Shown here in pieces: positions 8,295 to 43,408 of a DNA stretch of 63,718 nt. Each line of letters opens with the position of its first letter. Position 1 is the stretch's first letter. The DNA is taken from contig JAABTD010000007.1 of assembly GCA_011390065.1 (NCBI GenBank), positions 1-63,718 of the forward strand, given 5' to 3'. Made by a program: the position numbers and the translations under genes. Below the pieces are notes generated by a model. The model ran no database searches and was not told the origin of the DNA. It saw only the letters and a program-made list of their open reading frames with translations. The stretch is from Desulfobacteraceae bacterium. GTDB lineage: Bacteria > Desulfobacterota > Desulfobacteria > Desulfobacterales > JAABSP01.

Positions 8295-8313
8295 TGGTTG
8301 AGGTGCGGAAAAG

Positions 8314-21184: not shown

Positions 21185-21961
21185 ATGCATAATTTCAGGT
21201 TAATGCCAACCCGCTGGATTCTGGTGATGCTGATTTTTGTTCTCTTCCCCGCATGTGCCAACAATCAGAAATCGCAAGTGCGACGCCAACAGGCGGAGGC
21301 ATCCAGGAATCTGGGGGAGGCGTATCTGGCGCAGGGCAATTTTACGCTTGCATTGAGGGAACTCCTGAAATCCGAAAGCCAGAATCCCGATGACCCGTTT
21401 GTGCATAACAACCTGGGCCTAGCCTATATGGGCAAGGGAAAACTGGATGCCGCCATCGGCCATTTCCAGAAAGCGCTGGCTATTAATCCAGGCTATGCCC
21501 CCGCGCGAAACAACCTGGGTACGGCCTATCTCGCAAAAAAGGACTGGGATGCCGCCATTGCGACATTCAAGGAAGTCGCCGAGGATCTCCTGTACGCAAC
21601 ACCGCACTTTCCGCTGTCGAACCTCGGCTGGGCGTATTACAATAAGGGAAATTATGAACTCGCTGAAAAATATTATCTGGAAGCGCTCGATATAGAGAAA
21701 AATTTCCCAATCGCTCAGAGGGGTCTGGCCCGCACTTATATGGCCATGGGCAAATTGTCCGATGCCGTTAATGTCCTTGAAAAAGCGATCGACAATGCCC
21801 CCAGAATGGCGGAACTGCATTTGGAACTGGGCATGGCTTATGCTGCGCTGAATCAGAAGGAAAAAGCCCTGGATGCGTTTAACAAGGCGATCGCGTTGAA
21901 TCCGGAGGGTGAGATTGCGCAGGAGGCGCAGCGCGTGCGGTTGGAGATGTTGAGCAATTAA
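21185..21961 (+). CDS. TPR lipoprotein, PilF/PilW/Tgl-like secretin pilotin
   Basis: Lipobox FPA-C, LGEAYL first TPR, ARNNLGT, Y.TPHFPLSNLGWAY; about 6 TPRs; adjacent to the pilQ operon. Confidence 0.75.
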   Translation: MHNFRLMPTRWILVMLIFVLFPACANNQKSQVRRQQAEASRNLGEAYLAQGNFTLALRELLKSESQNPDDPFVHNNLGLAYMGKGKLDAAIGHFQKALAINPGYAPARNNLGTAYLAKKDWDAAIATFKEVAEDLLYATPHFPLSNLGWAYYNKGNYELAEKYYLEALDIEKNFPIAQRGLARTYMAMGKLSDAVNVLEKAIDNAPRMAELHLELGMAYAALNQKEKALDAFNKAIALNPEGEIAQEAQRVRLEMLSN

Positions 21962-22042: not shown

Positions 22043-22079
22043 GCCGTGCCGCTTGGAATTAAATTCCAAGCGGCACGGC
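22043..22079. terminator. 17-bp perfect inverted repeat, probable terminator for the pil operon
   Basis: GCCGTGCCGCTTGGAAT-TAA-ATTCCAAGCGGCACGGC, followed by TTTT on the minus strand; lies between convergent genes. Confidence 0.7.
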
Positions 22080-22176: not shown

Positions 22177-25100
22177 TCAAAAAGACCAAAAATCGCTCCG
22201 GATAATCGGGAGTTGAATCGTTATTTGTTGCAATGAACCCGAGCAGCCGGGCGCCGTTATCTCCCCTGTAGGACAATCCGGATCGAATTCAAATACAAGC
22301 CCTCCATCCGTATCGGCATTATAGATATATCGAATGACAAATGGGTTTCTGGTCCGTTCGTCTGTAGTGTCCCGCCATGTGCCGGGATAGATCAGGCTGT
22401 CAGGATAGATTATGCTGTAGACATTCCTCTGCTGGCTTGTCTCAACGGTGAAAGAAGAACCGCCTATGGGCGGGTTGCCGTATTCATCCTGGACAAACGC
22501 TTCAAAAATCAATTCGTTCTCATCTTCGACTGCAACCGGCAAAGGATCGCCTGTTTCCCAAATATTGTCACCCGCCTTGCTGTTAATGGCAACCAGCTCG
22601 AAGCTCATGCTGGCAGCGCCGGAAAACAGAACAAATGTCCTCGCCATGATGGTATTGTTCATCCCGCTCCTGCTCGCCGTCCAATCCGGAAGCGATTCAT
22701 TGGACAGGCCGGAATCAGCTTTATGAAAACTGATGCCTTCCCCGCCTATGAACAGGCTTTTGGTCTCCCCGAACGGGCCTTGGGCCAGGGACATGGCATG
22801 TTGCGCGAAAAGCGTTGCGTCATCGGGAGGATCGAATTGCGGGAGCCCTTCACTTGCTTCCAACCACAGTCCTCCCTCTTTCATGAAGCCGGATCTGTCA
22901 GATTTCAAATCATGGTAGTACAGATTGCCCACGGGGTGGAACCCCTCCGGCTCGAAATAGGTAGTGGCGTATAATCGATTGTTTGTCTCATCTAAAAGAA
23001 GTTGTTTGATATTCAATCCGGGATTGCGGATGGTGGTAAAAGTGAATTTGTCGCCCGGTTCGAAGGGGATGTTCCCTTCGACTATTGTAAATGCAAGGTC
23101 TACTGATGCCACTTCATAGCGCTGCCCCTCCATCGCGTGGTCGGGTTGGTCAGGCTGATCCGGGTCAGGAATAACTCCCGTATCACTGCCCGTTATGGTA
23201 AAGCCTCCCGCTGTTTGTTCGCATTCACCTTCCGGACATGCGCCTTGTTCGCAATCTCTCCCATCTGAATTTTCAACACATACCGCATATTCTTCATATT
23301 CAAGCGTCCAGTTCTCCGACAGCGTTTTTTTCCCGACGGTCACATCGGTTACTCTTCCGGTCCCTTGGTTTCGGATATCGCCTGCCGGAATAGTCGCCAT
23401 CAGGCCTTCTCCCAAACCTTCTGTATAATATTTCCAGCTTTTGCCGCTATCCGTGGAGACCCAGACGCCTGCATCCTCGGTTCCTGCATACAAAATATCA
23501 CTGACCCCCCCGTCGGCGCTGGAGTGCAACGCCAAGCTGTTGACGTGATCGCCGGGAAATGAGTTGGGCGCCCCGTCGGTGGAATCAGTTGTTTTGTAAA
23601 ACCATTGTCGTCCGCCTCCACTGCCGGCGTCTTTTGGATAGCTTTTGTATATGCCGCTGCTTGTCGCCGCATATAAAATCGCATCGGCGCCATGGGTATC
23701 GACGATCCTGACGATATCGTTGATATTGCGCCCCTTGCCCAACACTTCGGCTCGTTTAAAAATGACGCCGTCTTCGGAATATAAAATACCGTCGTTTTCA
23801 GTGCCAGCCCATACCCATGGGTACTCTCTGTAAGGCACAGCGTCGTCGTCGTAGTCACAAAGAACCGTTGACACCGCCGAACTGATACTGTTCAAATCGC
23901 TTAAGGGATAGGATTTCAACCCTATCCACTCTTCCGCACTGCCGCTGTTCCAAGTCAAACCGCCGTCAAGGCTCCGATAGATGTTCCCCTGCCCCAGAAA
24001 ACCGGTTGCCGCGTAAACGATGTTGGTTTCATCACGGTCAATGGAGATATCATTAACATAGGGGTAAATCCAATTCTGTCCCGGGTGGCTTGACGACCGG
24101 CTCCTATTTTCCCAGGTTTTACCCGAATCCAAAGATTTGTAAACCCCTCCGCCATCGGTTCCTGCAAAAAGTATATATCGATCCCTGGCTGCGAAATCGA
24201 CCGGCGCCAGATCGAGACTGGTGATATGGGTGGTCCTGCCGCCGACTGCTTCAGCGGTAATCGAGACGCCGCCTTCCAGCGGCCGGGGAGTAGGCGTCGA
24301 AAACAACGTGCTGTTTGAAAAACCGCCGGCAGTATTTGTATTTTGCTCGCCTTCCTCAATAAGACCGCCGGTATTATAGGTTTTAAATGATATAGCAGTC
24401 CCGTCGGGCACCGCATTGCCATAATAATCCCCTGCATTGGCAATCAACAGATTCTCCAAACCGGTGTATGAAAGACCCGAAATATTGTTGTATTGCGCAC
24501 TGATCCCAAATTCCTCGCCGACCGGAGGGCCTGCCTTTATAACAATCTGACTCACCACGGTGCTGACATTGCTATTATGGAAGTAAGTCGCTTTTACACT
24601 GACGGGTCCGGATTCGTAACCACTGCGCAAGACGGTGCCGACCCTCCCCTCGCCTTCGGTAAGGTCGAATATCGGCGTGAGGAGTTCCCCCCCGCCAGGT
24701 CCTGTGAGAATCTCAAAATCAATCCGATACCCATCTTGCACGGGATTGCCTGCATTGTCTTTTACTTCAAAAAAGAGTTGGACCGTTTCCTGGCCGCCGG
24801 TCCCTCTCACGCTGATTTCAGTCTGATCGGGCGGCGCCACGTTGATGGATGCGGGCGGGGGGTTAATGGTGATGGTTCCGGTTTCCGTCACTTCTACATT
24901 GTCTGTTACCCAGGTGGCCGTGATGGTGATCTCCCCTCCTTCATTTGGGGCTATATACCACGCGCTCACCCTGCCGGCATCGTCGCTGAGCCCATCGTTT
25001 TGAAGCTCTATCGTTCCGGTCCTGGACATGCCGGCCGAGGATTGGAGGGAAAATGTCACTTCCTCGCCGATCGCGGGGTCTCCGTTGGCCAGTTCAAGAG

Positions 25101-27921
25101 TGGCGATGATCTCGGCGCAATTCAGGGCCGTGCCATCCTTGCAGCTTTGCTGTCCCGTCCCCAAAACGATGTCGGGCGCTATCAACAGGCTGATGCTGCC
25201 TGGGGTATAATCAATATCGATCTCCTGGACAATCCCGCCGATCCTCTCGGTCTGCTCGCCATTCACTTCTTCTGCATATTTGTCGGTACCAACCCGAATC
25301 GTCGCCGTGCCGGGCTCGTTGTCGGCCGTCAGCCTCGCTATCGCCTCGCCGCCCACCGTAAACGATTGCGCAATACCGCCGACAAAGCCGCCTCCTCCGG
25401 AAACAACGCCGAAATAAACCGGCGTGTCATCAGGCGCGGGATCGCCCCCCACCATCGTCAAAACCGCACTAACGATGGCCTGGCTTTCGCCATCAGCCGG
25501 CAGGCTCGAGGGTTCGAGACTGAGTTGAATACCCGCGATCCGGGGGCCTACCAACTGAATTTCTACAGTTGTTTCCACGCCATTGGTTGCAACAATCTTC
25601 ACTTCGTCCTTGCCGCCATCCGGTACAAGACTGGGCGGTGTATAATTAACCGTTGCCGTGCCGCCCGCATCCGTTACAGCGGTGCCTGAATCAACAGCTC
25701 CGAACATCTCTCTGTCTCTGATCGTAAGCGTCGCACCGGGTACGAAATTGTCATATGCATCCCTCACTGTCATGGTGATAGTGCTGCCGACATCTTGTCC
25801 TAACGTCAATTTGGAAGGACTCGCGCTTGCTGTGACCATAGCCGGGGCGCCCGGATCAAACCCGACTTCTGCGGCAGCCCACACGCCTCCGGCCGTAATA
25901 GTGACGGTAGCGGTCCCTACATTGGTCGGGCTAATGAGTTGGGCCGTTGCCCTGCCGCCGATAGTTGTGGGATCTATCCGGGTTCCCGCATCATTCGTCG
26001 TCCCCTGGAACGTTCCGGCTGTGGTCGTAAAAGTCACTTTCGTTCCATCCGAAACCGCCTGCCCTTCAAAATCATTCACCTCAGCCGCAACCAGAACCAT
26101 CGTCTCACCGTCTGCAACAATGCTGGGAGCGCCCGTACTGGCGGTTATCGAAGCGACCTGAGCGCCGATAAGGGTAATCGTGATTTCAGCATTCTCAGTT
26201 TCATTGTTTTGATTCTTAAGCGGATTGCCGTTTTCATCTTTGACCGATACTGCGACATCACCGGTTTGGGTTGAAGTGGTGAAAACCGTGGACGCAAGGC
26301 CTCCTGCGGTTGTCGTAACAACTGATTCAGACAGTTGTCCCATGTTCGGCGCAGAAAGCTCGAACAAAACATTGCGCCCTTCCAGCCGGTGACCTGCTGC
26401 ATCATAGACAATGGCCTCGATGGTGCTTTGCTGCGATCCGTTTGCCGTTAAATTCACCGGATCAGCGTACAATTCGGCGCTGTAGGGAGAACCGGCCGCA
26501 AAGTCGACTGCGACAGTGTCCGACAATCCCGCCACGGTTCCGGTAACAGTGGCTGTCTCGACAATCGTACTGCTTTGCAGGACCACCCGTGCGACGCCGT
26601 TCTCCGTCTGGGCCCTGATGCCGCTTAAGGCGACATTGCAACCGGCCGTACCGTTCGGCGGGCAGGACAATGACCCTGCCGTGCTTGAAAAAACCACTTC
26701 AGTTCCATCAAGGGCTGGATCCTGGTTGACGTCCAGAACAGTCGCTTTAACGGTTGTCGTCGCCTGCCCGTCCGCAGTAATTTCCTCATCAACGGCCGTA
26801 AGATCGATGGCGTTTATTTCCACGACCGCCAGCGAAATCGTGAGGATATCGCCCGGTTCAATGTTCAATGTCCGCTCAATAAGCTCTCCATCCGGTCCCA
26901 CGGCAACGACTTTCAATTGACCGCTGGGAGGAATCGGCACCTCCCCAAAGTAAAACGTACCATCGGACAGCACCCTGACAACCTCATCCCCTACATAAAC
27001 AAAGCTTCCCGGCGTCGCCGTGCCCCGCACCGTTCCGGTTCTGCTTTCCTCATAAAAAATGCCATATACCCCACCGTCGGAGACGGATACGGCTGTTCCA
27101 TCCGCAGGCGTGTCGTCGGTCTCACCTGCAACCTCCCATCGGTGCTCATATGGATCGAAATGCAGGATGCGCACATTCGAGAGGGATCCGGGATTCGGAA
27201 GAATCAATTCTCCCGCGGCATCCATTTTCAATAAAGGGGGATTGATGAACACCATGGACGCAGGGGCCTGCTTACCCCCTATGATCACATCATTTGCCGC
27301 CAGCGTATCCGGCGACGGCAGCGGGACGGGCAACGGTATGGACAAATTGATGTATTCTACGTTCACCGATGCACTCGAGGCATCGGATCTGCCATTGCCG
27401 TTAAAAACATCGAAAACGCCATCCGGTTGAGGGGCGACATTCAACCGCGCCCTCTGTCCATCGATCGTGTTTGAGTTGACGGAACCGCCGACTTGTGCAT
27501 TGATGGAAACCGACGATGCCGCAGCCGTTTGAAGCAGCAAGCTCTGTTCAACAGCATCTCCGGAAGAAAGATCGGCAAGACGAAAAGTCGGAATAAGCCC
27601 CGATCGCGTGCCCAGCACCGTGTGCATTTCCTCGGATATGTCCATGGAAAATTGGCCATCGGCATTGGTAACGGTCGTATTCACCCCGTCTTCATTCTGT
27701 ATGGCATGAATTTTCACCTGGGGCGCACTATTGCCGTTTCCACTATAAACGGTGCCAGTGAAATTAAACGTCGGCGTCGGCGTCGGCGTCTCTCCACCGC
27801 CATCACCGTCGTCTCCGCCATCCGTGCCTTTTCCGCCTTTCGACCCACATCCAGCTAAAAGGAATATGCCCAACACCATCACTGTAAACAGATAGACTAA
27901 TTTTCCGATGCTGTATTTCAT
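22177..27921 (-). CDS. Giant lipoprotein (1914 aa) with invasin/intimin-type Ig (Big_1-like) repeats and a BNR/Asp-box beta-propeller; putative adhesin
   Basis: Lipobox LAG-C; about 7 repeats like ITADGQATTTVKATVLD..G.PV.DGT.V.F; SLDSGKTW, SLDGGLTW and STDSGKSW Asp-boxes; FAGTDGGGVYKS blades. Confidence 0.8.
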   Translation of the reverse strand: MKYSIGKLVYLFTVMVLGIFLLAGCGSKGGKGTDGGDDGDGGGETPTPTPTFNFTGTVYSGNGNSAPQVKIHAIQNEDGVNTTVTNADGQFSMDISEEMHTVLGTRSGLIPTFRLADLSSGDAVEQSLLLQTAAASSVSINAQVGGSVNSNTIDGQRARLNVAPQPDGVFDVFNGNGRSDASSASVNVEYINLSIPLPVPLPSPDTLAANDVIIGGKQAPASMVFINPPLLKMDAAGELILPNPGSLSNVRILHFDPYEHRWEVAGETDDTPADGTAVSVSDGGVYGIFYEESRTGTVRGTATPGSFVYVGDEVVRVLSDGTFYFGEVPIPPSGQLKVVAVGPDGELIERTLNIEPGDILTISLAVVEINAIDLTAVDEEITADGQATTTVKATVLDVNQDPALDGTEVVFSSTAGSLSCPPNGTAGCNVALSGIRAQTENGVARVVLQSSTIVETATVTGTVAGLSDTVAVDFAAGSPYSAELYADPVNLTANGSQQSTIEAIVYDAAGHRLEGRNVLFELSAPNMGQLSESVVTTTAGGLASTVFTTSTQTGDVAVSVKDENGNPLKNQNNETENAEITITLIGAQVASITASTGAPSIVADGETMVLVAAEVNDFEGQAVSDGTKVTFTTTAGTFQGTTNDAGTRIDPTTIGGRATAQLISPTNVGTATVTITAGGVWAAAEVGFDPGAPAMVTASASPSKLTLGQDVGSTITMTVRDAYDNFVPGATLTIRDREMFGAVDSGTAVTDAGGTATVNYTPPSLVPDGGKDEVKIVATNGVETTVEIQLVGPRIAGIQLSLEPSSLPADGESQAIVSAVLTMVGGDPAPDDTPVYFGVVSGGGGFVGGIAQSFTVGGEAIARLTADNEPGTATIRVGTDKYAEEVNGEQTERIGGIVQEIDIDYTPGSISLLIAPDIVLGTGQQSCKDGTALNCAEIIATLELANGDPAIGEEVTFSLQSSAGMSRTGTIELQNDGLSDDAGRVSAWYIAPNEGGEITITATWVTDNVEVTETGTITINPPPASINVAPPDQTEISVRGTGGQETVQLFFEVKDNAGNPVQDGYRIDFEILTGPGGGELLTPIFDLTEGEGRVGTVLRSGYESGPVSVKATYFHNSNVSTVVSQIVIKAGPPVGEEFGISAQYNNISGLSYTGLENLLIANAGDYYGNAVPDGTAISFKTYNTGGLIEEGEQNTNTAGGFSNSTLFSTPTPRPLEGGVSITAEAVGGRTTHITSLDLAPVDFAARDRYILFAGTDGGGVYKSLDSGKTWENRSRSSSHPGQNWIYPYVNDISIDRDETNIVYAATGFLGQGNIYRSLDGGLTWNSGSAEEWIGLKSYPLSDLNSISSAVSTVLCDYDDDAVPYREYPWVWAGTENDGILYSEDGVIFKRAEVLGKGRNINDIVRIVDTHGADAILYAATSSGIYKSYPKDAGSGGGRQWFYKTTDSTDGAPNSFPGDHVNSLALHSSADGGVSDILYAGTEDAGVWVSTDSGKSWKYYTEGLGEGLMATIPAGDIRNQGTGRVTDVTVGKKTLSENWTLEYEEYAVCVENSDGRDCEQGACPEGECEQTAGGFTITGSDTGVIPDPDQPDQPDHAMEGQRYEVASVDLAFTIVEGNIPFEPGDKFTFTTIRNPGLNIKQLLLDETNNRLYATTYFEPEGFHPVGNLYYHDLKSDRSGFMKEGGLWLEASEGLPQFDPPDDATLFAQHAMSLAQGPFGETKSLFIGGEGISFHKADSGLSNESLPDWTASRSGMNNTIMARTFVLFSGAASMSFELVAINSKAGDNIWETGDPLPVAVEDENELIFEAFVQDEYGNPPIGGSSFTVETSQQRNVYSIIYPDSLIYPGTWRDTTDERTRNPFVIRYIYNADTDGGLVFEFDPDCPTGEITAPGCSGSLQQITIQLPIIRSDFWSF

Positions 27922-28012
27922 TTATCTTCCTTATCTGATGTCTAAGTCATACATAAAGCAGCACACTGGTTTTCAGCTTCCAACCCGGTACAAGGCAGAA
28001 GGCAATCCTGCA

Positions 28013-31000
28013 TTAAAGCTGCAACTGACGCTGCTCCAGCTGAACGATCTTGGGGGTAATGAAAATCAGCAGTTCCCGTTTGTCCTGTGCTTGAACTCTC
28101 GACTTGAACAACCACCCGAGCAACGGTATTTTTGACAGCCCCGGCAGGCCGTCGTTGGATCTTGTCTGATTTTCTCTGATAATGCCGCCGATGACGAAGG
28201 TGTCTCCATCGTTGACCAGCAATTCGGTCGAGGCCTCATTGGTCGACAATGCAGGACCGTCGGGGGTCTGTTGAAAAATATCGTTGTTCTGGATCTGCAC
28301 TTTCATGGAAATGCGGTTGTCCGGAGTAATATGAGGCGTCACATCCAGTTTCAAATCAACTTGTTTGAACTCGGTCGTTGTTTCTCCATTTTCATCCGTT
28401 GTCGCATAAGGATATTCAAATCCTTGGCTGATATTGGCCGCTTTATTGTCTAAGGTTAAAATTCGCGGCGCTGAAATGATTCTACCCTCCTCCTGAGACT
28501 CCATGGCCATCAACATCGCATTGAGAAGGAACGGCGTTCCGGCGATCCTCAGAAAATTGAACCCGATGCTGCCGAACTGGTTCACCGGCAGGTTGATGGC
28601 GATGTCGGTGCCATACGTGCCCCCCAGGACGTTATACGCTCTTTGCGGACCCGCGCCCGGTTCCGCTTCCGCCCCGGAAGCGACGGTCGCATCACTGATG
28701 CCGGTGCTCATTCCCCAGTTGGTGCCGATCTCTCTGGAAAAATTGGTGGTGGCTTCAACGATGCGCGCCTCGATCAGCACCTGGGGCGTCACCCGGTCAA
28801 GCTTTTCGACGATTTCCCTTGCCTGCTTGATCGTGCCGGCCGTATCCGTCAGGATCACCATGTTGGTGCGCGTATCCACGCTGAGAGACCCCCGGTCTTT
28901 TGTTATGATCTTATCCAGATGCGGTTGAATCTCTGTGGCGGCATCTGAATAGCTGACGGGAATGTACTCCGTGATCAGAGGTTCCAGCGCTTTTTGCTGA
29001 TCCTGGGCCGACCGCTGGGCCGCAAGGGTTTCCTGTTTTTGCTGTTCTTCCTGCTTGAGGGTGTTCCGGGTTGCGACCCGGATGATGTTGCCCTCCATGG
29101 TTTTGCCTAGTTGGTTCATCTTCAGGACAAGGTCGAGCACCTGATCCCATGGCACAGGATGTTCCAGGGTGAGGGTTACCTGCCCTGTTACGTCATTATC
29201 AACGGCAAAATTCTTGCCGCTCACCTCTCGTAGAATGCGAAAGACATTCTTGATATCTGTTTCATAGAAATCCAGCGCAATGGGTTCCCCCGTATATCTC
29301 GGGCCTGTATCGATCAATCCCGCTTCCGGAGAGAAGTCATCCATAAAATCAGCGCCCGCCGCATCAAAAGACGCAGCCGGCGGCTCTCCGGCGAACCCTT
29401 CCATTGCAGCAGTCGGCATATCGAAAGCACCGGGCGCCTCGGCGCCTCTTGCAACGGCCCGTTCTTCATAGGCGGGGGCCGTCGACGGCCGGGTCTGGGA
29501 CGGCGCCTCATCAAAAGCCGGCGCACGCTCGGATATACCGGGCTGCGGCCGGGCGCCTGGAGACGTTGGCGCTTGATTCCGCGCGTCTGTCAGCATGGGC
29601 TGCGGCATCGTTGTTTCGGCAGGGCGTGGTGATATGGAGGAGGCTTCGAAATGGACCATCAAAAGCCCATCTGTCTGTTCGACATAGTATGGCACCGATT
29701 CCCGCAATTGGATGTCAACGACGGACACTTCCTCTCCGGACTTTTCGGTCTGCCGGGGAAGGATGCGATCCACGGCGCTCTCGAATCGATCGGTGATGAG
29801 CGGTCGCTGACGATAATCCGGGGTTTTGGTATTGAACAACTGCAGTTGCAATGCTCTATTGCCGACGCTTTCGATATTGTGCGCAACCGGCTCCGATGTG
29901 CCGATGATCAAAGTGGACTTGCCGGCTTCCTCGCTCAGGAAATCGACGCGATTCACCCACGCCGGTTTTCCGCTCACTTGAACCGACGGACGAGGCGCCG
30001 CCGGAGCCGTTCTTTCGGACGGCATTTCAGGTGCTGCCCGCTCAACGGGCGCCATCCCCGGGACGGGTTGTTCAACAGGCCGGACAGGCGGCGGCGCAGG
30101 TTGGGCCGGTGCTTCCATGCGCGTATCGGCTATCATGGTCCCTGGAGTTTGTCCTTTTCCAACGTAGACCACCATGCCGTTTTTTTCCGGATACGCTGAA
30201 AAATTTGAAAGGTATTCCGGACGGGTCTCAATATATACCCGCACCTTGTTCGGATAGGTTTCGTGTCGGACCTTTTTCACCCACTGGGTATCCACCGGGA
30301 ACGCGTTTTGCTTCTCATAGGGATTTTCGATGTTGTCAATATCAAAAACAATGGCAGGCGGATTTTGAATGGTGAGGACTTTATAATCGGCGATCTGACC
30401 GTCTCCCCTCAGCGTGACCATGGTGCTGTCGGGAAGTTGCGTCGCATAAATCGACTGAAGACGGTTCGCCGTATCTTTGACAGATGATCGGGGCTGAGCC
30501 GTTTCCGTCATGGACCGGCTGCTTTGCCGGATCGGGGCTCCGCTTGCATACGCCGCATCCGTTCCCACATGGATCAACAGACCGTTATCGACCGGATACG
30601 CCGAAAACGCGGATAGATACTGTTGTTTCGTTTCCAGCACCAGCCGAAGTCGATCCGGGTAACCGAAATACCGGACGGTTTCCACCCAGGGGCTGTCAAC
30701 CTTCACAATCTTTTCATTCTTGTAAGGACTCTGCAGGTTGAAGATGTCGAAAATGATGCGCGCCGGGCTTTTAATGGTAAATGCCTTATAATTGGTGATG
30801 GCGCCGTCTGCTCCCACAAAGACTTTCATGCTGTCGTCCATTTTTGTCGCGTAAACGGAATGCAGCCGTGTTGCAGTTTGGATGGGAGTGGATTCATAGG
30901 CGTCGGTTTCCTTTCCATCTGCGGAACGCGTCCCTGATGCGTCACCGGAAAACAGTATGGACACGGCGCCGTCCTCTCGAAGGATCTCATGCGAAAGATC

Positions 31001-31420
31001 CGAGTTGAGCACGATTTCTATTTTGGTGGTTTTCTGGTCGGCGTCATTTCTGATTTCCGAAGCCTTTACGGAACGAATGACTGCGTTTTCTTCTCCGGTT
31101 TGGTGGACGCCCATGGTCTCTTCCAAATCAAGGCCGGTTTCCGGGAAATACAACAGCACCGTCGGCGGAAACGGCTGTTTTGCGGAGGAATAAGTAAGCT
31201 CTTGATTTCCCTGGATCAATACACCCGGCGCATCCGGAGTTTGCAAAATTTCCAGTCGTGTGATCACTTTAGAGAAGGCTTGATTGTCGGCGCTTGAATC
31301 GGCAATCTGCCCTGGGCCTTTGCTGGAAGCGCATCCCGCAAAAATGGATATCACGAACATCAGCAGAATGCCGGCTACCCCAAAAAAATGACAGTCTTGT
31401 TTCTTGACGCTACATTTCAT
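28013..31420 (-). CDS. pilQ: Type IV pilus secretin PilQ with multiple AMIN domains
   Basis: YTGEPIALDF, V.L.LEHPVPWDQVLD, QVLIEARIVEA, ISAPRILTLDN and RELLIFITPKI motifs; AMIN-like repeats (PARIIFDI, PPAIVFDI); start moved to ATG 31420. Confidence 0.95.
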   Translation of the reverse strand: MKCSVKKQDCHFFGVAGILLMFVISIFAGCASSKGPGQIADSSADNQAFSKVITRLEILQTPDAPGVLIQGNQELTYSSAKQPFPPTVLLYFPETGLDLEETMGVHQTGEENAVIRSVKASEIRNDADQKTTKIEIVLNSDLSHEILREDGAVSILFSGDASGTRSADGKETDAYESTPIQTATRLHSVYATKMDDSMKVFVGADGAITNYKAFTIKSPARIIFDIFNLQSPYKNEKIVKVDSPWVETVRYFGYPDRLRLVLETKQQYLSAFSAYPVDNGLLIHVGTDAAYASGAPIRQSSRSMTETAQPRSSVKDTANRLQSIYATQLPDSTMVTLRGDGQIADYKVLTIQNPPAIVFDIDNIENPYEKQNAFPVDTQWVKKVRHETYPNKVRVYIETRPEYLSNFSAYPEKNGMVVYVGKGQTPGTMIADTRMEAPAQPAPPPVRPVEQPVPGMAPVERAAPEMPSERTAPAAPRPSVQVSGKPAWVNRVDFLSEEAGKSTLIIGTSEPVAHNIESVGNRALQLQLFNTKTPDYRQRPLITDRFESAVDRILPRQTEKSGEEVSVVDIQLRESVPYYVEQTDGLLMVHFEASSISPRPAETTMPQPMLTDARNQAPTSPGARPQPGISERAPAFDEAPSQTRPSTAPAYEERAVARGAEAPGAFDMPTAAMEGFAGEPPAASFDAAGADFMDDFSPEAGLIDTGPRYTGEPIALDFYETDIKNVFRILREVSGKNFAVDNDVTGQVTLTLEHPVPWDQVLDLVLKMNQLGKTMEGNIIRVATRNTLKQEEQQKQETLAAQRSAQDQQKALEPLITEYIPVSYSDAATEIQPHLDKIITKDRGSLSVDTRTNMVILTDTAGTIKQAREIVEKLDRVTPQVLIEARIVEATTNFSREIGTNWGMSTGISDATVASGAEAEPGAGPQRAYNVLGGTYGTDIAINLPVNQFGSIGFNFLRIAGTPFLLNAMLMAMESQEEGRIISAPRILTLDNKAANISQGFEYPYATTDENGETTTEFKQVDLKLDVTPHITPDNRISMKVQIQNNDIFQQTPDGPALSTNEASTELLVNDGDTFVIGGIIRENQTRSNDGLPGLSKIPLLGWLFKSRVQAQDKRELLIFITPKIVQLEQRQLQL

Positions 31421-32522
31421 GGTATCCCTCTCCAGGAGGCTTTTGGATTTTAAGTTCTCTTTCACGCACCGTTATTTCGCCGCGGATATCTTCATACTCC
31501 TCTTCGACAATGATTCTGTCTTTCAGTATCTCAGCCACCTTGCCGGAATGGATTCCGATATACGTTCCCTTGGAAATAATATACCCTTTTCCGGAAGACT
31601 CCTGGACCAATGCGCGATTGCCACTTTCCGCCCGGATGACGCCGACCAGCTTCAGTTGATTCAGGTCCATCTTTTCCAGCGGTGTCCGGGGAATTCGCTT
31701 TTCCCTTTTTGGTTTGTCCGCTGTCGAACCGCCTTCGACCGGCTGTTCTTCAGGCGGCGTTTCTTCTTCTTGGGGCGGCTTGAACAACGGCTCGAATGGA
31801 TCCACTCTGCCGGAAGGATCATAGCCGGTCTTTGTTTTTGTCTCTTCTCTGGCGATGCCCAAAATGGAAGCCAGCGCGCTGTCGCTGACGCCGGCGTCCG
31901 TTGTTCGGCTTTCCCCCGTCGACGTCTCGGGCGCTTCCGCCTTTTCCTCCGGCGGCCGATCTGCTTCCTCCTCATCGGCCGGCGTTTCCCGCCCTTCGAA
32001 CACCGGCAAATCGTCCGGGAGCGATGCGGTTTCCATCGTCGCCTCCTCGGAAACATCGGCATCCACGGCTGCCGCCGTCTGTGGTCGTTGTGCTTCCGCC
32101 GGCTTTTTTTCCGGCGCCGGCTTGTTATTGTTCTCCGACATCTCAACCGGCGCTGTTCGCGGCGGTTTTACCGCAGGGGCCGGCTGTTCGGGCGCAATCT
32201 TTTTAATATCTATCGGTTTATTGTCTTCCGGCTGGACAGGTATAACGATAACATCGGGGATCTTTTTGGTGACGGAAGCACTTTGAGCGGATTCCTGAGA
32301 GGGCGATTGCTCCTTAAGAGCGGCGGGCGATTGGGACTCGACCGGCTGTTCAGAGGCAACTTGTAGAGGCTCTTGAGGTGTTTTTTCCTCTGGTAAAACA
32401 ACTTTTTTGCGCACTGAGGCCGTTTTTTCGGCGTCGTTCGGGGGATCGCTGCAACTCCATAAAGTGAGGGCGATCAAAACGCAAAAAATGATTTTCCATG
32501 CTCTAAAAAAATGCGCTTTCAT
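31410..32522 (-). CDS. pilP: Type IV pilus assembly lipoprotein PilP with long acidic linker
   Basis: Lipobox LWS-C; YDPSGRVDPF and RTPLEKMDLNQLKLVGVI...ALV...G.GY...G..IG motifs. Confidence 0.9.
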   Translation of the reverse strand: MKAHFFRAWKIIFCVLIALTLWSCSDPPNDAEKTASVRKKVVLPEEKTPQEPLQVASEQPVESQSPAALKEQSPSQESAQSASVTKKIPDVIVIPVQPEDNKPIDIKKIAPEQPAPAVKPPRTAPVEMSENNNKPAPEKKPAEAQRPQTAAAVDADVSEEATMETASLPDDLPVFEGRETPADEEEADRPPEEKAEAPETSTGESRTTDAGVSDSALASILGIAREETKTKTGYDPSGRVDPFEPLFKPPQEEETPPEEQPVEGGSTADKPKREKRIPRTPLEKMDLNQLKLVGVIRAESGNRALVQESSGKGYIISKGTYIGIHSGKVAEILKDRIIVEEEYEDIRGEITVRERELKIQKPPGEGYHEM

Positions 32523-32533
32523 AGCGACAACTA

Positions 32534-33127
32534 TTATTTCTTTTCAGGGGTGGTTTCTAAAAATTTATATGTAACCGCCGTGCAGGTGATATTAAGCGTG
32601 CTTTCTTCTGCCTTGCCGGTTTTGGTCATGCGAATGTCCTTGAGATTGACTATACGATTCAGTTCCGAAATCTTGTATGCAAAATTCACAAAATCATGGT
32701 AACTCCCGTTAACCTGGATCGATACGGGAATTTCAGCATAAAATCCCTTGGGTTTTTCCGGCTTTGGCTGGAAGAGTAAAAAATCCAGCTTCGCATCCTG
32801 ACCCGAGTGGGAGATATTCGTCAACAGAGTGGGGATTTCTTCACTTTCCGGCAGCGCCCGTTTGGCCTCTTCAAACGTTTCTCTGGCTGCAGCCATCTGC
32901 GCTTCCACTTCCTTCAACTTCGAGGCTTTGCGCTTGGCGATCATCAACTCCTGTTCCAATTTGCTCAGGTCGCCTTCAAGCTTAGTGATCTCTTTATGCT
33001 TCGGCATGAAGAGGAAATACACCGATGGTCCAAGCAGTAAAATCAGCGCCCCCACGCATATAAGAATGCGGTGGAGCCGGCTTAATTTTTCTACTTTCTG
33101 AAATAAAGGCTGCAAATCAACTTTCAT
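32534..33127 (-). CDS. pilO: Type IV pilus assembly protein PilO
   Basis: One TM plus coiled coil; LPESEEIPTLL, FYAEIPVSIQVNGSYH and RIVN motifs. Confidence 0.93.
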   Translation of the reverse strand: MKVDLQPLFQKVEKLSRLHRILICVGALILLLGPSVYFLFMPKHKEITKLEGDLSKLEQELMIAKRKASKLKEVEAQMAAARETFEEAKRALPESEEIPTLLTNISHSGQDAKLDFLLFQPKPEKPKGFYAEIPVSIQVNGSYHDFVNFAYKISELNRIVNLKDIRMTKTGKAEESTLNITCTAVTYKFLETTPEKK

Positions 33128-33813
33128 GATCTACTCGCTTCGTCGGCTTTAGGTGGGGCCGATGCCATGCGCTCTTTCTGGCATGTGACTTGAAACCGTT
33201 TCAAATTAATTTCTTCACGGGCTTTGTCCGGCCTGAGGGTCATGTGCTGCAACGTCACCAGTTTGACATTGGAATAAACGTTGAAATCCTCTTCCCCCAG
33301 TTCCTTCGTTGCATTTTCTAACTGAGTCATGAAATCGGCCACCGTTTTGTTGTCCAGAGCGATCCCCTCGATCGTCAGATGGGTTTCGACTTTTTCTTCC
33401 CTTTTGGCGCTTTTTCCTTTTCCACTCGTGATGACGGTGATGCGTTCCACCGCTTCGAAACGCGCCAGCCACATCCGATCTTTGATGATCATTTCGTTCA
33501 TGTTGTCCAGCAGCCGGAAGGATGCTCCCCGCCCCGCATTCAACTCTTCGATCACGGTGAGTTTTTGGTTGAGGAGGTCCAGCTGTTTGCGGATCGCTTC
33601 CACCTTGGCGACAATTTTCTGAAATCGATCCAGCTCCTTTTTCGTGTAATCGATTTTTGCATTCAGATCGGTGATCGCGCCATTCAGGTGGGAATTGTAC
33701 CAGGCGACGGCGCCGATGATCAGCGCCAGGTAGACAAGAAAAACAAAGACCTGATTTCTCGCAGACTCTTTTTTCTTTTCAGAGACATAGGGCAGAAGGT
33801 TGATCCGTATCAT
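33124..33813 (-). CDS. pilN: Type IV pilus assembly protein PilN
   Basis: MIRINLLP start, TM, coiled coil, WL..F...L.IEG.A PilN domain. Confidence 0.93.
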   Translation of the reverse strand: MIRINLLPYVSEKKKESARNQVFVFLVYLALIIGAVAWYNSHLNGAITDLNAKIDYTKKELDRFQKIVAKVEAIRKQLDLLNQKLTVIEELNAGRGASFRLLDNMNEMIIKDRMWLARFEAVERITVITSGKGKSAKREEKVETHLTIEGIALDNKTVADFMTQLENATKELGEEDFNVYSNVKLVTLQHMTLRPDKAREEINLKRFQVTCQKERMASAPPKADEASRS

Positions 33814-34865
33814 TTATCGCCGACCCTCCTCAACGCCAGCCCCAAACATATGGCCGCCTGGGGGGCGATTCTGTCGAGGTCCAGAGGATCGAAATCCCCT
33901 CCCACGCTTATATTTTCGAAAGGATTGATGATTTCAACATGGGAAGACGTTTCTTCAGCCAAAAGATCCCTGAACCGTTTGATGTTGGCGCCGCCGCCGC
34001 TTAAAATGATCTTCCGGATCGTCTCTCCCGGATAAGTGGAATAAAAAAAATCCAGAGCACGACGAATTTCCGTACACCAATCCGTCACCACGGCGGTTAC
34101 GATCTCCATCAGGTCCTTTGCCGCCATTGCGCCCGAATCCCCGCTGTGGTACAAATGCTCGGCCTCTTCCAGTGAGCAGCCGATCTGGGAAACGATCTGC
34201 TGATTGATCTGACCGCATCCCAGGGAGACATCCCGGACCAACACCGATAGATCCCCTTTTAATATATTGAGCGTCGTTTTGGCTGCGCCCACGTCGATCA
34301 ACGCGACGTTGTCGTTTTCCGGCTCATAGTTGACGTCGTAAATGTTCTGCAGAGCGAATGCATCCACATCGATGACCTTGGGCGTTAAATCCGCCAACTG
34401 GATGAGGCTTTCATATTCGCTGATGACTTCTTTTTTCGCGGCCACAAGCATGACGTTCATCTGGTTGGGATTGTCTTCCAACTCTCCCAGTATCTGAAAA
34501 TCCAGGTTGACATCGCTGATATCGAAAGGAATATACTGTTCGGCTTCAAAATGGATCGTCTCCTGCAATTGATCTTGCGGCATGGATTGCACAACGATCG
34601 GCTTGACAATAATGGAATACCCTCCGATGGATATGGCGACGTTTTTTTCTTTGACTTTATACATTTTGAAAAGCTGCCGGATGTACCGTGCGATTTCCGT
34701 GGGCTCCTTGATGGTCCCGTCTTCAATCAGTTCCGCGGGGATGTCGAGCATTCCGAATTTTTTGAGCCGATATCCTTGCTTTTCATGTTCGATTTCACCA
34801 AGTTTCAAGGTCCTTGAACCGATATCCAGACCGACGATGCTTTGCTTTTTCTTACGGAATATCAC
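33810..34865 (-). CDS. pilM: Type IV pilus assembly protein PilM
   Basis: VGLDIGS, EAEQYIPF, VMLVAAKK, VDVDAFAL, IDVGA and LSGGGA actin-like motifs; GTG 34865 is the likely start. Confidence 0.95.
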   Translation of the reverse strand: MIFRKKKQSIVGLDIGSRTLKLGEIEHEKQGYRLKKFGMLDIPAELIEDGTIKEPTEIARYIRQLFKMYKVKEKNVAISIGGYSIIVKPIVVQSMPQDQLQETIHFEAEQYIPFDISDVNLDFQILGELEDNPNQMNVMLVAAKKEVISEYESLIQLADLTPKVIDVDAFALQNIYDVNYEPENDNVALIDVGAAKTTLNILKGDLSVLVRDVSLGCGQINQQIVSQIGCSLEEAEHLYHSGDSGAMAAKDLMEIVTAVVTDWCTEIRRALDFFYSTYPGETIRKIILSGGGANIKRFRDLLAEETSSHVEIINPFENISVGGDFDPLDLDRIAPQAAICLGLALRRVGDK

Positions 34866-34999
34866 GATAGGCTCTTTGTGGGATTGACATTGGGTTTGCT
34901 CCATGTGCGCTTCCACATGCAACGGCGACTAACGGGTGGCAAGCGAGCGTCGAAATGCGGAAACGGACTGTGATGGCCATTTATAAAATGACGTTTTCT

Positions 35000-35028: not shown

Positions 35029-35290
35029 CGGAAATAACGTCTTTTTAGACTTCTGGTTTATCTGCCGCGCCATCGGGTCTGCATCCTAAAAACCGCTGCA
35101 TGATCTTCCCGGCTCTTTTCTCTCTAAGGCGGTTATTCCACAGGCCGGTCAAAACGGTCAATAGGTTTAAGCAGGTATTGAAAGGTAGAGATATCCTACC
35201 CCAAGGCAAGTCTGTTTTCCAGCCGGGAATAGAGTCAATGTTCCCGGCTGGTCTGCTTTTCAGGATAGAGAATAATTGATGGCAGTTCAA

Positions 35291-36709
35291 ATGAGCGAAG
35301 AAAAAGTCAAACCATTCAGACTGGTCAAATATTTCACTTACAGCAGCCTTATTGTCATTTTCCTGGGAACGCTGGTCCTCTCGCTGATGAACACCCACTG
35401 GGCCAGAGCCATGCAGTTGAAAAAAAGCGAGGAATATGCGCTGTTGCTGGTTGAAAACTTGAATCATCAAGTATTTCTGCAATTTATTATTCCGATAGCC
35501 CTGAAATTCGGTAAAATTCAACTTCGCAACAAAGAACAGTTCGAGCGAATGGACAAGGTGGTGCGCAGTACGCTTCACAGCTTCAAAGTGGACATGGTCA
35601 ATATATATGATATGAATCATATTATTTCTTACAGTTTTGATCAAGAAAAAATCGGCAAAGAAAACCTCGGCGGCGCCAGTTATGACAAGGCCCTTTCCGG
35701 AAATCCCACTTCCAAATTAATTCAGCGGGGCAATTTCTGGCAGCTTGTCCTGGGATATCCTCAGAAAAGTAAAATCGTCACCTTTGCTCCTCTGCGCGCC
35801 GAAAAACCCCTGTCCACGATCTCCGGGCCGGTGTTGGGGGTCGTTGAAATCATTCAGGACTTATCAAAGGATTATAAAGCCATCGTCCGGTTCCAGATCC
35901 GGGTCATCCTCACCTGCACCGCTGTCATGGGCCTTCTTTTTCTGGTGTTGATTTTCGTGGTCAAGCGCGGAGAGAGCATCATTCACCACCGCAATATCGA
36001 AAGAATCCGCTTAAAGGAGCAATTAAATCGAGCCCAGCGGCTCTCGGCTTTAGGCGAAATGATCGCCGGAATCTCCCATGAAATTCGAAATCCTCTTGGA
36101 ATCATAAGGAGTTCCGCAGAACTGCTGAAGAAAAAAATGGCGGCCGTCGACCCCTCAAACGCCTTCCCCAACATTATCGTGGAAGAGGCCACCCGGTTGA
36201 ATCTCATCATCACCGATTTTCTCGAGTACGCAAAACCCAAAGCCCCTCAGATGACAGTCTGCCGCCTCCAGCGGATTCTCGAAAAGAGCATCGCCTTTTT
36301 ATCAGGACAATTCCAGCAGACCGGCCATGAAATCGAATCGTCCTACGAAAAAGATCTGCCTGAAATCATGATGGATTTCGATATGATGCATCAGGCGTTT
36401 CTCAACATCCTCATCAATGCAATGCAGGCCATGCCGGAAGGAGGCAAAATCCGGATTGATGCTCGTTCCAATGGGGACGCCGCGGTGATCTCCTTCGAGG
36501 ATGAAGGAAAAGGGATTCCAGAATCGGCTCTGGCTCAGGTCTGGGACCCATTTTTTACCACCAAGGAAACCGGGACGGGTCTGGGTCTGGGAATTGTAAA
36601 AAATATCGTTGAAGCGCACGGCGGCAGCGTCGACATCCGGAACGGACCCCAAGGGGGCGCTGTAGTGACCATCCGCCTGCCGTTTATCGTCCCGAAATCC
36701 GAAACCTGA
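35291..36709 (+). CDS. Membrane sensor histidine kinase
   Basis: Two TM helices flanking a sensor domain; H-box SHEIRNPL, N-box NILINA, DEGKG, PFFTTKE and GTGLGL. Confidence 0.93.
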   Translation: MSEEKVKPFRLVKYFTYSSLIVIFLGTLVLSLMNTHWARAMQLKKSEEYALLLVENLNHQVFLQFIIPIALKFGKIQLRNKEQFERMDKVVRSTLHSFKVDMVNIYDMNHIISYSFDQEKIGKENLGGASYDKALSGNPTSKLIQRGNFWQLVLGYPQKSKIVTFAPLRAEKPLSTISGPVLGVVEIIQDLSKDYKAIVRFQIRVILTCTAVMGLLFLVLIFVVKRGESIIHHRNIERIRLKEQLNRAQRLSALGEMIAGISHEIRNPLGIIRSSAELLKKKMAAVDPSNAFPNIIVEEATRLNLIITDFLEYAKPKAPQMTVCRLQRILEKSIAFLSGQFQQTGHEIESSYEKDLPEIMMDFDMMHQAFLNILINAMQAMPEGGKIRIDARSNGDAAVISFEDEGKGIPESALAQVWDPFFTTKETGTGLGLGIVKNIVEAHGGSVDIRNGPQGGAVVTIRLPFIVPKSET

Positions 36710-36724
36710 AATAATCAGAGCGCA

Positions 36725-38116
36725 ATGGATACCATTCTCATCGTCGATGACGAAAAAAACTATACCGTGATTTTAAGCGCGGTTCTGGAAGAGGAAGGCT
36801 ATGAAACACTTACGGCCAACAGCGGTCGCGAAGCCCTGGAAATTCTGAAAAACTGCGATGTGGACCTGGTGCTCACAGACATGAAGATGCCCTCTTTGGA
36901 CGGCATGGAACTGCTGGAGCGGGTCAAGGACAAAGATCCTGATTTGCCGGTGATCATGATGACGGCTTATGGCACGGTCGAAAAGGCCGTGGAAGCGATG
37001 CAGAAAGGGGCTTACAACTACATTCTCAAGCCGTTCGACAATGAAAGCCTGATCGTGTATGTAAGCAGGGCCGTGGCCATGTACCGGATGATAAAGGAAA
37101 ACCGCCGTCTGAAGGATGCTGTCGAGTATCGCTACAGTTTCGGCAATATCATCGGGAAAAGCAAGCCGATGCAGGCGGTTTTCCAGACCATTCGCAAGAT
37201 CGCGCCCTCCAACGCCACGGTTCTGATCGAAGGGGAAAACGGCACCGGGAAAGAGCTGGTTGCGAAATCGATCCACTTCAACAGCCCGAGGCGGGACAAT
37301 GCCTTTATCGCGGTCAACTGCGCGGCCCTGTCTGAAAGTCTTCTGGAAAGCGAACTCTTCGGTCACGAAAAAGGGGCTTTCACCGGCGCCGTGGCCATGA
37401 AAAAAGGGCGGTTTGAACTTGCAGACAGCGGAACCTTGTTTCTGGACGAAATCGGGGAAATCTCGCCGCAGTTGCAGGTCAAGCTGTTGCGGGTGCTTCA
37501 GGAAAAAATTTTCGAACGGGTGGGCGGCGTGAAACCGATTTCCGTGGATATCCGCATCATCGCCGCCACCAACAAGGAGTTGAAAAAGGAGGTGGACGCC
37601 GGCCGCTTCCGGGAGGATCTCTTCTACCGACTCAACGTGCTCCACATCGTACTGCCGCCTCTCCGGGATCGCAGTGAGGACATTCGGCTTCTGGCGAATC
37701 ACTTCATCGACAAATACGCGGGGGAGCGAGAATCGGATGTCAAGGTCACCGGCATTGCACAGGAGGCCGAACGATTGTTCTATGAATACGAGTGGCCCGG
37801 CAATGTCCGGGAACTGGAAAATGTGATCGAGCGGGCCGTTATTCTCTGCCCGGGCGATAAAATCCGGGTCGATGATCTTCCCAAAAACTTCAAGAAAAGC
37901 GCCGACAGCACACTGCAGATCGAAGGGGTGCCGCCCGATGCAAAACTCAACAAGACGCTGGCCCTGGTAGAAAAGAAAATGATCGAACGGGCATTGCGGC
38001 TCAGCGGCAACGTGCAGGCCCATGCCGCACAGTTGCTGGGCATCGGAAAAAGCGGGCTCAATCAGAAGATCAAGAAACACCGGCTTGATGTGGGGCCGAA
38101 AAACGCTGCCCCCTAG
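36725..38116 (+). CDS. Sigma54-dependent (NtrC/AtoC-type) response regulator
   Basis: Receiver (VDDE, DMKMP), [39 protein letters not shown] and a Fis-type HTH. Confidence 0.95.
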
Positions 38117-38802
38117 CCGGCAAGCTGCTCTTTCACCAGATCCGCATAAATGGAATCCGCATAGTCCGAAACGATGGTCTCATAAGCTTTCCGGCTCTTT
38201 TCCGCATTGTCCAGGAGATTGTAAATCCGACCCAAATTGAAATAGGCCTCACTTTTCAGGACCGGGCTTTCGCCGGCAACAATACGCTCGAAATAAAGGA
38301 CTGATTTTTCATGGGCGTTCTGCTGTTCACAGGCATACCCGAGACCACTCAGCACCAGATTTTCCAGGGCAGGGTCGCCCTTGAACGAGGGCAGCGCCGT
38401 CTCGTACAGACGCACCGCCCGGTCCGATTCTCCCGCCTCATAGGCGATATGCGCGTACATCACCCGGCCCAGCTTTCCCGCTTCGGTGTTGCCGTAGTCC
38501 GCCAGAAGATCCTGGAAGTCGCGGTCGACTTCGTTATAGGCTTTGACCGGATCTGTATCCTCGAGTGCGACTTCGTAACGACTCCATGCCTCGGAAAACA
38601 GGGCGGACGCCCTGTTTTCTGATCGGTAGCCGACGTATTGCACCGCCGCAAAGACAATCAGCAATAGCAATATGCCACTGAAAATACCGATAAGCGTCTT
38701 TTTATTGGCCATCGCATAGTTGAACATTTTGCTCGAAAAGGTCAAGAACTCATCCGGTTCCTTGAGCAGCTGTTTTCGGGTAACCTTTTTATTTTTCGCC
38801 AC
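38113..38802 (-). CDS. YfgM-like membrane-anchored TPR protein
   Basis: KQLLKEPDEF N-terminus, one TM, TPR helices; GTG start 38802. Confidence 0.75.
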   Translation of the reverse strand: MAKNKKVTRKQLLKEPDEFLTFSSKMFNYAMANKKTLIGIFSGILLLLIVFAAVQYVGYRSENRASALFSEAWSRYEVALEDTDPVKAYNEVDRDFQDLLADYGNTEAGKLGRVMYAHIAYEAGESDRAVRLYETALPSFKGDPALENLVLSGLGYACEQQNAHEKSVLYFERIVAGESPVLKSEAYFNLGRIYNLLDNAEKSRKAYETIVSDYADSIYADLVKEQLAG

Positions 38803-38862
38803 GAGCACTCCTTTATGAATTATCAATCAATATAGCGTTTTATATCTATGCCTGCATCTTCC

Positions 38863-43147: not shown

Positions 43148-43408
43148 CTATCTGACCTGATCCACGGTGATCTGTTCGGCTTCCGCCACCCGGAGAGAGA
43201 CGTGGTATCCTTTGACGATCAGTTCCATGGGATCCCGAAGCGGGGCGTATTTTTCCACATAGACCTCTGTTCCTTTGACAATGCCCATCTCCAGTATCCG
43301 CCGACGCAGAGGGCCGTTGCCGCCCACCCGGACAACCCGAGCGGTCCGGGACTCCTTCACGTCGCTGAGCCGGACCGGTTTTTCCACCGCTTCGTCTGTA
43401 CAATTCAC
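43148..43408 (-). CDS. feoA: Ferrous iron transport protein FeoA
   Basis: RRILEMGIVKG...APLRDP...KGY.VSLR motifs. Confidence 0.93.
   Translation of the reverse strand: MNCTDEAVEKPVRLSDVKESRTARVVRVGGNGPLRRRILEMGIVKGTEVYVEKYAPLRDPMELIVKGYHVSLRVAEAEQITVDQVR

Follow-up and report, generated by a model that had tools for sequence, protein, structure and literature searches.

A giant Ig-repeat lipoprotein encoded directly after pilQ is a probable accessory of the type IVa pilus secretin module in Desulfobacterota

We analysed a stretch of DNA of 63,718 nucleotides from a Desulfobacteraceae bacterium (GenBank assembly GCA_011390065.1, contig JAABTD010000007.1; hereafter the window), a contig of a draft genome of 5.04 Mb in 464 contigs, in which the type IVa pilus genes pilMNOPQ are followed by a giant gene for a 1914-residue lipoprotein with immunoglobulin-like (Ig) repeats. 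This gene is probably the last cistron of the pilMNOPQ operon, and in Desulfobacterota its product probably serves the type IVa pilus as a dedicated accessory of the secretin module in the outer membrane and acts as a surface adhesin. The giant protein would be acylated, and its stalk would hold a distal head clear of the membrane, on the cell surface close to where the pilus emerges; there it would work with the pilus as a fibrillar adhesin or a ligand-binding partner. The pilQ-linked giant lipoprotein is real, conserved and uncharacterised, and a literature search found no description of such a family.

The region consists of six co-oriented minus-strand open reading frames (ORFs; 33810-34922, 33124-33813, 32534-33127, 31410-32522, 28013-31465 and 22177-27921), the first five of which encode PilM, PilN, PilO, PilP and PilQ, in that order and all above the curated Pfam cutoffs. 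PilM (33810-34922, with a possible alternative start at the GTG at 34865, the choice of an earlier note on this DNA) matches PF11104 with 251 bits and TIGR01175 with 248 bits (cutoff 133). PilN (33124-33813), whose gene overlaps pilM by 4 nucleotides (nt), matches PF05137 with 31 bits (cutoff 22.8), PilO (32534-33127) matches PF04350 with 149 bits, and PilP (31410-32522), a lipoprotein with the N-terminus ...LTLWSC and a long Pro/Glu/Ala-rich linker, matches PF04351 with 62 bits. The secretin (28013-31420), which contains two AMIN domains along with N0, Secretin_N and Secretin domains, scores 385 bits against TIGR02515 (cutoff 284) and falls below the cutoffs for GspD (237 bits, cutoff 351), MshL and SctC. 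By these profile matches, the secretin operon of the window is that of a type IVa pilus, PilMNOPQ, with an AMIN-bearing secretin. PilQ likely starts at Met16 of its ORF (nt 31420), which gives a protein of 1135 residues, as in the database copy. Its N-terminus reads as a lipoprotein signal (MKCSV...IFAGC; 31330-31420, minus strand), and a GC-type lipobox is likewise found in PilQ of five of the six relatives examined (L002-L006 among these loci). From their sequences the lipobox-bearing PilQs look like "liposecretins", yet a gene for a PilW/Tgl-like pilotin stays nearby.

The giant gene begins with an ATG at 27921, separated by 91 nt from the pilQ stop codon (28013-28015) on the same strand. 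This spacer (27922-28012, minus strand) carries a Shine-Dalgarno sequence, AAGGAAG, ahead of the ATG. Consensus scans detected no terminator-like or sigma-70-like site in it, its RNA is predicted to fold into small hairpins only, with no T-run, and a scan of 21-39 kb detected no sigma-54 -24/-12 match. The strongest intrinsic terminator of the 14-kb region, a 17-bp stem with 11 GC pairs followed by TTTT (22043-22079, minus strand), lies 98 nt past the stop codon of the giant gene, and, being placed between convergent genes, may act in both directions. From these pattern scans, which are not proof of co-transcription, we infer that the giant gene is co-transcribed with pilQ. The earlier note had described the 91-nt distance on one strand, the lack of a terminator between the two genes and a strong hairpin after the second; the coordinates, scans and predicted folds agree with it on all three.

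The mature form of the giant protein has a mass of about 198 kDa and an isoelectric point of 4.15. Its first 51 residues (27769-27921, minus strand, as are all the modules that follow) comprise a signal peptide with the lipobox LLAG-C25 (residues 1-25) and a Gly/Asp/Pro-Thr linker (residues 26-51). In an AlphaFold2 (AF2) model, a helix at residues 4-23 is followed by a segment with a predicted local distance difference test score (pLDDT) below 50 at residues 23-45, the linker being modelled as disordered. In an alignment of 13 homologues (A2) C25 is invariant and G26 nearly so, most full-length homologues possess a lipobox, and the residues past the lipid-bearing cysteine (Gly at +2 and Ser at +3, in C-G-S-K-G-G) are conserved across the family. 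The linker leads into an N-terminal module (N-module; residues 52-372, nt 26806-27768; AF2 pLDDT 87.5), which is conserved in 17 homologues and in which Foldseek comparisons indicate a transthyretin/CarboxypepD_reg-like domain, a ZU5-like domain and a beta-sandwich. The first of these (residues 54-132) has a weak Pfam match (19.8 bits, below cutoff) and superposes on the transthyretin-like domains of carboxypeptidases D, N and M with a root-mean-square deviation of 1.5-2.8 Å over about 82 residues; the middle one resembles the ankyrin ZU5 domain 3f59 with a template modelling score (TM-score) of 0.54-0.55 on the target, which is fold-level support only. The stalk (residues 373-1239, nt 24205-26805) is made of 8 Ig repeats of the Big_1/Invasin_D3 type, scoring above the Pfam cutoffs for both Invasin_D3 (112.8 bits, 1e-32) and Big_1 (101 bits, 4e-29); a self-trained hidden Markov model places the 8 units at residues 380-1219 and a weak ninth at 1799-1834. 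The head (residues 1240-1914, nt 22180-24204; AF2 pLDDT 80) is modelled as a BNR/Asp-box beta-propeller with an inserted beta-sandwich (head residues ~284-392; nt 23029-23355, minus strand) and a C-terminal Ig-like domain. Strict SxDxGxxW Asp-box motifs occur at residues 1263, 1317 and 1489, with a looser match at 1374, and the head alignment A1 of 18 homologues with 39-66% identity contains 82 invariant columns. Searched as a whole, the protein sequence had no match among PDB chains at E<=0.01.

This architecture bears out the lipid-anchored stalk and head proposed in the earlier note from a lipobox, a linker, a regulatory-like domain and a propeller; its "about 7" Ig repeats become 8, and the ZU5-like domain that it listed is recognizable by fold only. 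The insertion in the propeller has a four-Cys loop, CVENSDGRDCEQGACPEGEC, present only in close relatives. We also considered a ZU5-type autoproteolysis that would free the stalk from its anchor and rejected it: the H-F-S-like site reads HFD, and its homologues show H/R/Y/W, then F, then D/N/S, with no conserved nucleophile.

The giant protein has full-length homologues in genomes and metagenomes of the Desulfobacterales type. Synteny is retained in the two closest (65% and 62% identity), and three distant ones (34-42% identity; 2408-3271 residues) lie directly after pilMNOPQ within the outer flanks rimP-nusA-infB, ribH-nusB and pilSR, while a fourth distant homologue follows an orphan secretin and a tetratricopeptide repeat (TPR) gene, with two more Ig-repeat genes between. 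For a broader sample we scanned one genome per GTDB species with the head alignment A1, recovering 74 loci (L008-L081), and scored linkage by tblastn with the Pil proteins of the window. Head-bearing loci are found in Desulfobacteraceae, Desulfococcaceae, Desulfatibacillaceae, Desulfatiglandales, Syntrophales and others, and the cultured carriers include Desulfonema magnum, D. limicola, Desulfatibacillum alkenivorans, Desulfamplus magnetovallimortis and Desulfatirhabdium butyrativorans. Twenty loci were left out of the judged set, either for a contig or flank that is too short (17) or for having only Ig-repeat ORFs up to the edge (L012, L013 and L043). A PilQ-type secretin is encoded upstream on the same strand in 48 of the remaining 54: directly upstream in 31 loci, with a median gap of 55 nt (range 6-404); with an interposed PilW/Tgl-like TPR gene in 4; and 0.5-6.7 kb upstream in 13, where the gap, as far as its content was identified, holds a TPR gene and/or additional Ig-repeat ORFs. 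No secretin is within reach in the other six (L009, L016, L022, L041, L081 and L072); the first five of these lie among unrelated or unassigned genes where checked, and the last adjoins a TPR gene and a LysM gene. With roughly 4000 genes in a genome of such size, and secretin genes numbering one to a few, the probability of adjacency by chance is negligible.

In a maximum-likelihood tree of 70 head domains, linked copies are present in every clade, whereas the five unlinked copies it contains are scattered singletons nested among linked ones, corresponding to five separate changes; one of them (L009) is placed next to a linked copy from the same genome (L019). Because linked copies fill every clade and unlinked ones are scattered singletons, the tree indicates that linkage to pilQ is ancestral and that the unlinked copies are secondary paralogues. 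The tally and the head tree together rule out a chance adjacency to pilQ, and the analysis of homologous neighbourhoods that the earlier note had proposed points to a strong and ancient tie.

Such a tie could also have been kept by regulation. The giant protein might be a co-regulated but mechanistically independent surface adhesin that is carried by the Lol pathway to the outer membrane and exposed by other means, its placement in the operon serving joint attachment, aggregation or gliding. The adhesin-like architecture with its variable stalk, the glycine at +2, which fits Lol sorting, and the unlinked paralogues (L009, L016, L041 and L081), which are presumably functional without adjacency to pilQ, all agree with this explanation. 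Co-regulation, however, rarely holds a gene beside one specific gene over family- and order-level divergence, and the partner is always a secretin, pilotin or TsaP, even in loci with no pilMNOP in the sampled flank (L007, L014 and L045). We hence consider an independent adhesin unlikely, and favour a dedicated accessory of the secretin module.

An approach from the secretin side gave a concordant picture. Among four related PilQ proteins on long contigs, three have pilQ operons with an Ig-repeat lipoprotein after them that bears a GCGS lipobox: in Desulfonema ishimotonii a 2099-residue lipoprotein with the head, in a second locus (L090) a 1268-residue lipoprotein with the N-module and Ig repeats and without the head, and in Desulfococcus multivorans a headless 744-residue GCGSSGG-lipoprotein with only a weak Big_1 match. 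The fourth operon (L089) has no such lipoprotein after pilQ, only a convergent TPR gene. What stays constant in the pilQ-downstream lipoproteins is their lipobox, Ig domains and location after pilQ, both the N-module and the head being optional. The N-module was considered as a universal PilQ-docking element and rejected, many linked copies, for example that of Desulfamplus, being without it.

The other genes around the secretin point in the same direction. In the window the giant gene sits between pilQ and a convergent gene for a 258-residue TPR lipoprotein (21185-21961, plus strand; lipobox LFPAC), a candidate PilQ pilotin of the PilW/PilF/Tgl type, whose best NCBIfam matches, PilW with 129.5 bits (cutoff 154) and Tgl with 116 (cutoff 225), are both below cutoff. 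Its lipobox and size suit such a pilotin, for which about 250 residues are expected. In about 20 loci a homologue of this lipoprotein is encoded next to the secretin and head genes or separates them. In 8 loci a TsaP-like gene directly follows the head gene; that of L004 matches the Myxococcus xanthus TsaP chain of 3jc8 with E 1.4e-35 and that of L047 matches 6ve2_O with E 6.8e-24. The latter locus, from Desulfatibacillum alkenivorans DSM 16219, consists in this order of pilQ, a gap of 6 nt, the giant gene (3710 residues), a gap of 92 nt and tsaP. Thus, the gene partners are consistently those of the outer-membrane sub-complex (secretin, pilotin and TsaP) and not pilins or motors.

A position flanked by pilQ on one side and by tsaP or the pilotin gene on the other is also what one would expect if the giant protein faced the periplasm as a secretin accessory, plug or scaffold on the inner leaflet of the outer membrane, in the manner of TsaP, the Slk plugs of Pseudomonas aeruginosa or the belt/cap proteins of Deinococcus. 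The conservation of the N-module and head sequences, suggesting a conserved partner, is compatible with such a role. Dedicated secretin plug proteins have been described in P. aeruginosa, and the authors' speculation that bacteria without SlkAB have other kinds lends it some further support (PMC13392014). The dimensions of the giant protein, on the other hand, speak for the outside of the cell: 8 to more than 25 Ig domains would extend over an estimated 30-100 nm or so, too long for the periplasm, and neither the length of the stalk nor the number of heads is fixed (Desulfamplus has 2 Ig domains and the homologue P0011 two heads), unlike in a stoichiometric part. Moreover, the gene is missing from some pilQ operons. 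The giant protein shares with the known accessories (TsaP, PilF/PilW/Tgl, the SlkAB plugs and the Deinococcus belt/cap) that they are encoded or act with the secretin, but it has no sequence or fold similarity to them, is far larger, has a variable stalk and is not universal. A periplasm-facing part is accordingly improbable in our estimate. An outer-surface fibrillar adhesin is suggested instead by a variable stalk with a conserved distal domain, which is hard to fit in the periplasm.

Several known surface proteins share elements of this design. Proteins of the intimin/invasin type (type Ve secretion) export their passenger through a 12-stranded N-terminal beta-barrel. The giant protein has the same tandem Big_1/Invasin_D3 Ig stalk, but it is lipid-anchored and lacks the N-terminal barrel, the LysM domain and the C-type-lectin tip. 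The barrel family PF11924 has no match in it at E<=0.01, as the earlier note had held, and true barrel-bearing relatives occur as distant homology matches only (P0075 and P0116). Hence an intimin/invasin identity is ruled out by the missing barrel. PilY1/PilC are likewise large proteins associated with the pilus; they have a beta-propeller at the C-terminus and are presumed to be adhesive. They are, however, encoded with minor pilins, whereas the giant protein is a lipoprotein with a BNR/Asp-box propeller that is encoded after pilQ. We rejected a PilY1 identity on the absence of a PF05567 match, on the lipidation and on the wrong gene context, with pilQ and TPR neighbours and no pilins in the window.

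A closer functional parallel comes from lipoproteins displayed by type II secretion. The earlier note knew of no characterised route of the kind that it proposed, surface delivery or function dependent on the PilQ machine. Such a route does have precedents: InvL of Acinetobacter baumannii, a barrel-less invasin-like lipoprotein that needs the type II secretin GspD for surface exposure, and the pullulanase PulA of Klebsiella oxytoca, the classic lipoprotein displayed via type II secretion (PMC9245377). Like both, the giant protein has a lipoprotein signal with a lipobox cysteine and no beta-barrel of its own, and with InvL it further shares invasin-type Ig domains and a distal binding domain. 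It differs from both in that the machine adjoining its gene is a type IVa pilus (PilMNOPQ) and not a type II system, and in that its gene lies within the operon of the secretin. InvL and PulA need their secretin; for the giant protein such a need is conjectural. The giant protein is also 3-4 times larger and carries a BNR propeller at its tip in place of a lectin-like domain, and its likeness to InvL is drawn from architecture. By analogy, then, it would work most like the secretin-dependent surface lipoproteins of the InvL/PulA type, but beside a type IVa pilus.

Since type IVa pili and type II secretion systems are homologous, and given the InvL/PulA precedent, passage through PilQ is plausible. 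On this model the pilus machine would receive the lipidated giant protein and let it out through PilQ, much as the homologous type II secretin does for InvL and PulA, after which its lipid would keep it anchored in the outer leaflet. We offer this as the most likely route to the surface, albeit tentatively. That the type IVa pilus of Desulfobacterota doubles as a display system, pushing a giant lipidated adhesin through PilQ to be anchored beside the pilus exit, is a possible but rather doubtful extension of the analogy. Several points weigh against these proposals. Gene adjacency attests to a functional tie, which comparative genomics firmly establishes for the secretin module, and not to a mechanism. 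The residue at +2 is glycine and not an aspartate of the PulA type, which keeps PulA off the Lol pathway, although this is an enterobacterial rule that may not hold in Desulfobacterota. The head is large, and a propeller bearing inserted domains may come close to the most that a secretin channel can accommodate. Lastly, some pilQ operons of the clade are without the gene (L089) and some homologues are unlinked, and because of this the gene is not an obligatory part of the pilus.

The head invites a further comparison, with the BNR/Asp-box propellers of GH74, Ycf48, sortilin/Vps10 and DAIP, with which it shares its fold class and the SxDxGxxW motifs. Its best PDB matches, GH74, Ycf48, DAIP and SorLA-Vps10, are all of the BNR type (Foldseek probability 1.00 to GH74, Ycf48 and Vps10), with TM-scores that are low (0.25-0.45) because of the extra domains, and the Pfam Sortilin-Vps10 match to the giant protein, at 16 bits, is below cutoff. 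In distinction from these proteins, the head comprises a single propeller with a beta-sandwich insertion followed by an Ig-like domain, and there is no evidence for catalysis. On the modelled structure, it belongs to the BNR propeller class in a broad sense only.

The GH74 xyloglucanases are the best structural matches of the head (E 2e-11), and there is a weak NCBIfam glycosylhydrolase match. These matches, with an exopolysaccharide export cluster 13 kb away, could be read as signs of a GH74-type surface enzyme or lectin that processes or binds exopolysaccharide or slime pulled by the pilus. GH74 enzymes have two tandem seven-bladed propellers enclosing a catalytic cleft with two aspartates. 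The head, in contrast, has one propeller against the two that form that cleft, its TM-scores to the GH74 structures are only 0.25-0.34, the NCBIfam match reaches 23.6 bits against a cutoff of 175, and BNR propellers are mostly non-enzymatic binders. We therefore regard a GH74-type function as very improbable, and retain an adhesive or ligand-binding head on the pilus-associated lipoprotein as the preferred reading.

A profile search of 1.84 billion representatives yielded about 100 clusters with the full head architecture among the matches listed, and 70,061 weaker matches that are generic BNR propellers; on these sequence counts the giant lipoprotein family is moderate-sized and lineage-restricted. 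Within it stalk length ranges from 2 Ig domains (Desulfamplus magnetovallimortis, 1038 residues) to proteins of more than 3700 residues. In the Desulfamplus protein (L057:9230-12346) the stalk is down to these 2 Ig domains and the propeller insertion is multiplied at least 3 times. The homologue P0011 (L004:10001-19816; 3271 residues) has two complete heads, with insertion motifs at residues ~1506-1562 and 2941-2998. In Desulfonema magnum 4be13 (L031:2232-12094) the gene downstream of pilQ appears as two ORFs of 2145 residues (Ig stalk) and 1142 residues (head) with an overlap of 4 nt, which reflects either a true division into two genes or a frameshift. A second type of locus (L007:941-14416, L014, L045, L053, L056 and L076) has a divergent secretin (~31% identity) followed by the TPR lipoprotein and after it by up to three Ig/propeller genes, at least one in each case; the sampled flanks of these loci showed no sign of pilMNOP.

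Type IV pilus machines have been dissected chiefly in Pseudomonas, Neisseria and Myxococcus, and none of these genera was among the carriers of the head domain in the scan of one genome per GTDB species. The recurrence of a large lipoprotein beside the genes for secretin, pilotin and TsaP across a marine sulfate-reducer lineage suggests that the outer-membrane module of the pilus has a component or cargo that has so far been overlooked. The carriers are abundant marine sulfate reducers, among them the gliding Desulfonema and the magnetotactic Desulfamplus. Export of the protein through PilQ, if it takes place, would extend secretin-mediated display of lipoproteins from type II secretion to type IVa pili and make the gene after pilQ a genomic rule for finding cargo; the new element would then be a type IVa pilus machine displaying a lipoprotein, secretin-dependent display itself being already known. 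Should it instead be a surface adhesin whose part is limited to cooperation with the pilus, it would still be a candidate for a role in aggregation, in filament cohesion or in the attachment of sediment bacteria to surfaces. As several carriers are cultured, the question is directly testable.

Upstream of the operon, and divergent from pilM, the window encodes a PilS/PilR-like pair (35276-38116, plus strand), a histidine kinase with HisKA and HATPase_c domains and a sigma-54 response regulator with Response_reg, Sigma54_activat and HTH_8 domains; the same pair is found divergent ahead of pilM in L002, L003, L006, L087, L088 and L090. A 199-residue ORF between pilM and the kinase gene (35045-35644, minus strand) overlaps the kinase start, has no family match and is probably spurious. 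Adjoining the pilR-like gene is a gene for a second small TPR protein (38113-38826, minus strand; TPR_21-like), which is found in the same position in L006, L087, L088 and L090 and may be part of the pilus regulon. Neither pilin nor pilus ATPase genes are present in the window, whose other genes are of the housekeeping kind (tilS, ftsH, folP, dnaK-grpE, feoB, pckG, rpoN and gap). The exopolysaccharide export cluster (2875-9303), 13 kb from the pilus operon, includes a YjbH-like gene, a 1037-residue Wza-like Poly_export protein with multiple SLBB domains and a Wzz/GNVR protein. Upstream of feoB, a single ORF (43405-44106, minus strand) fuses FUR and FeoA domains (Pfam 2e-22 and 8e-16, respectively).

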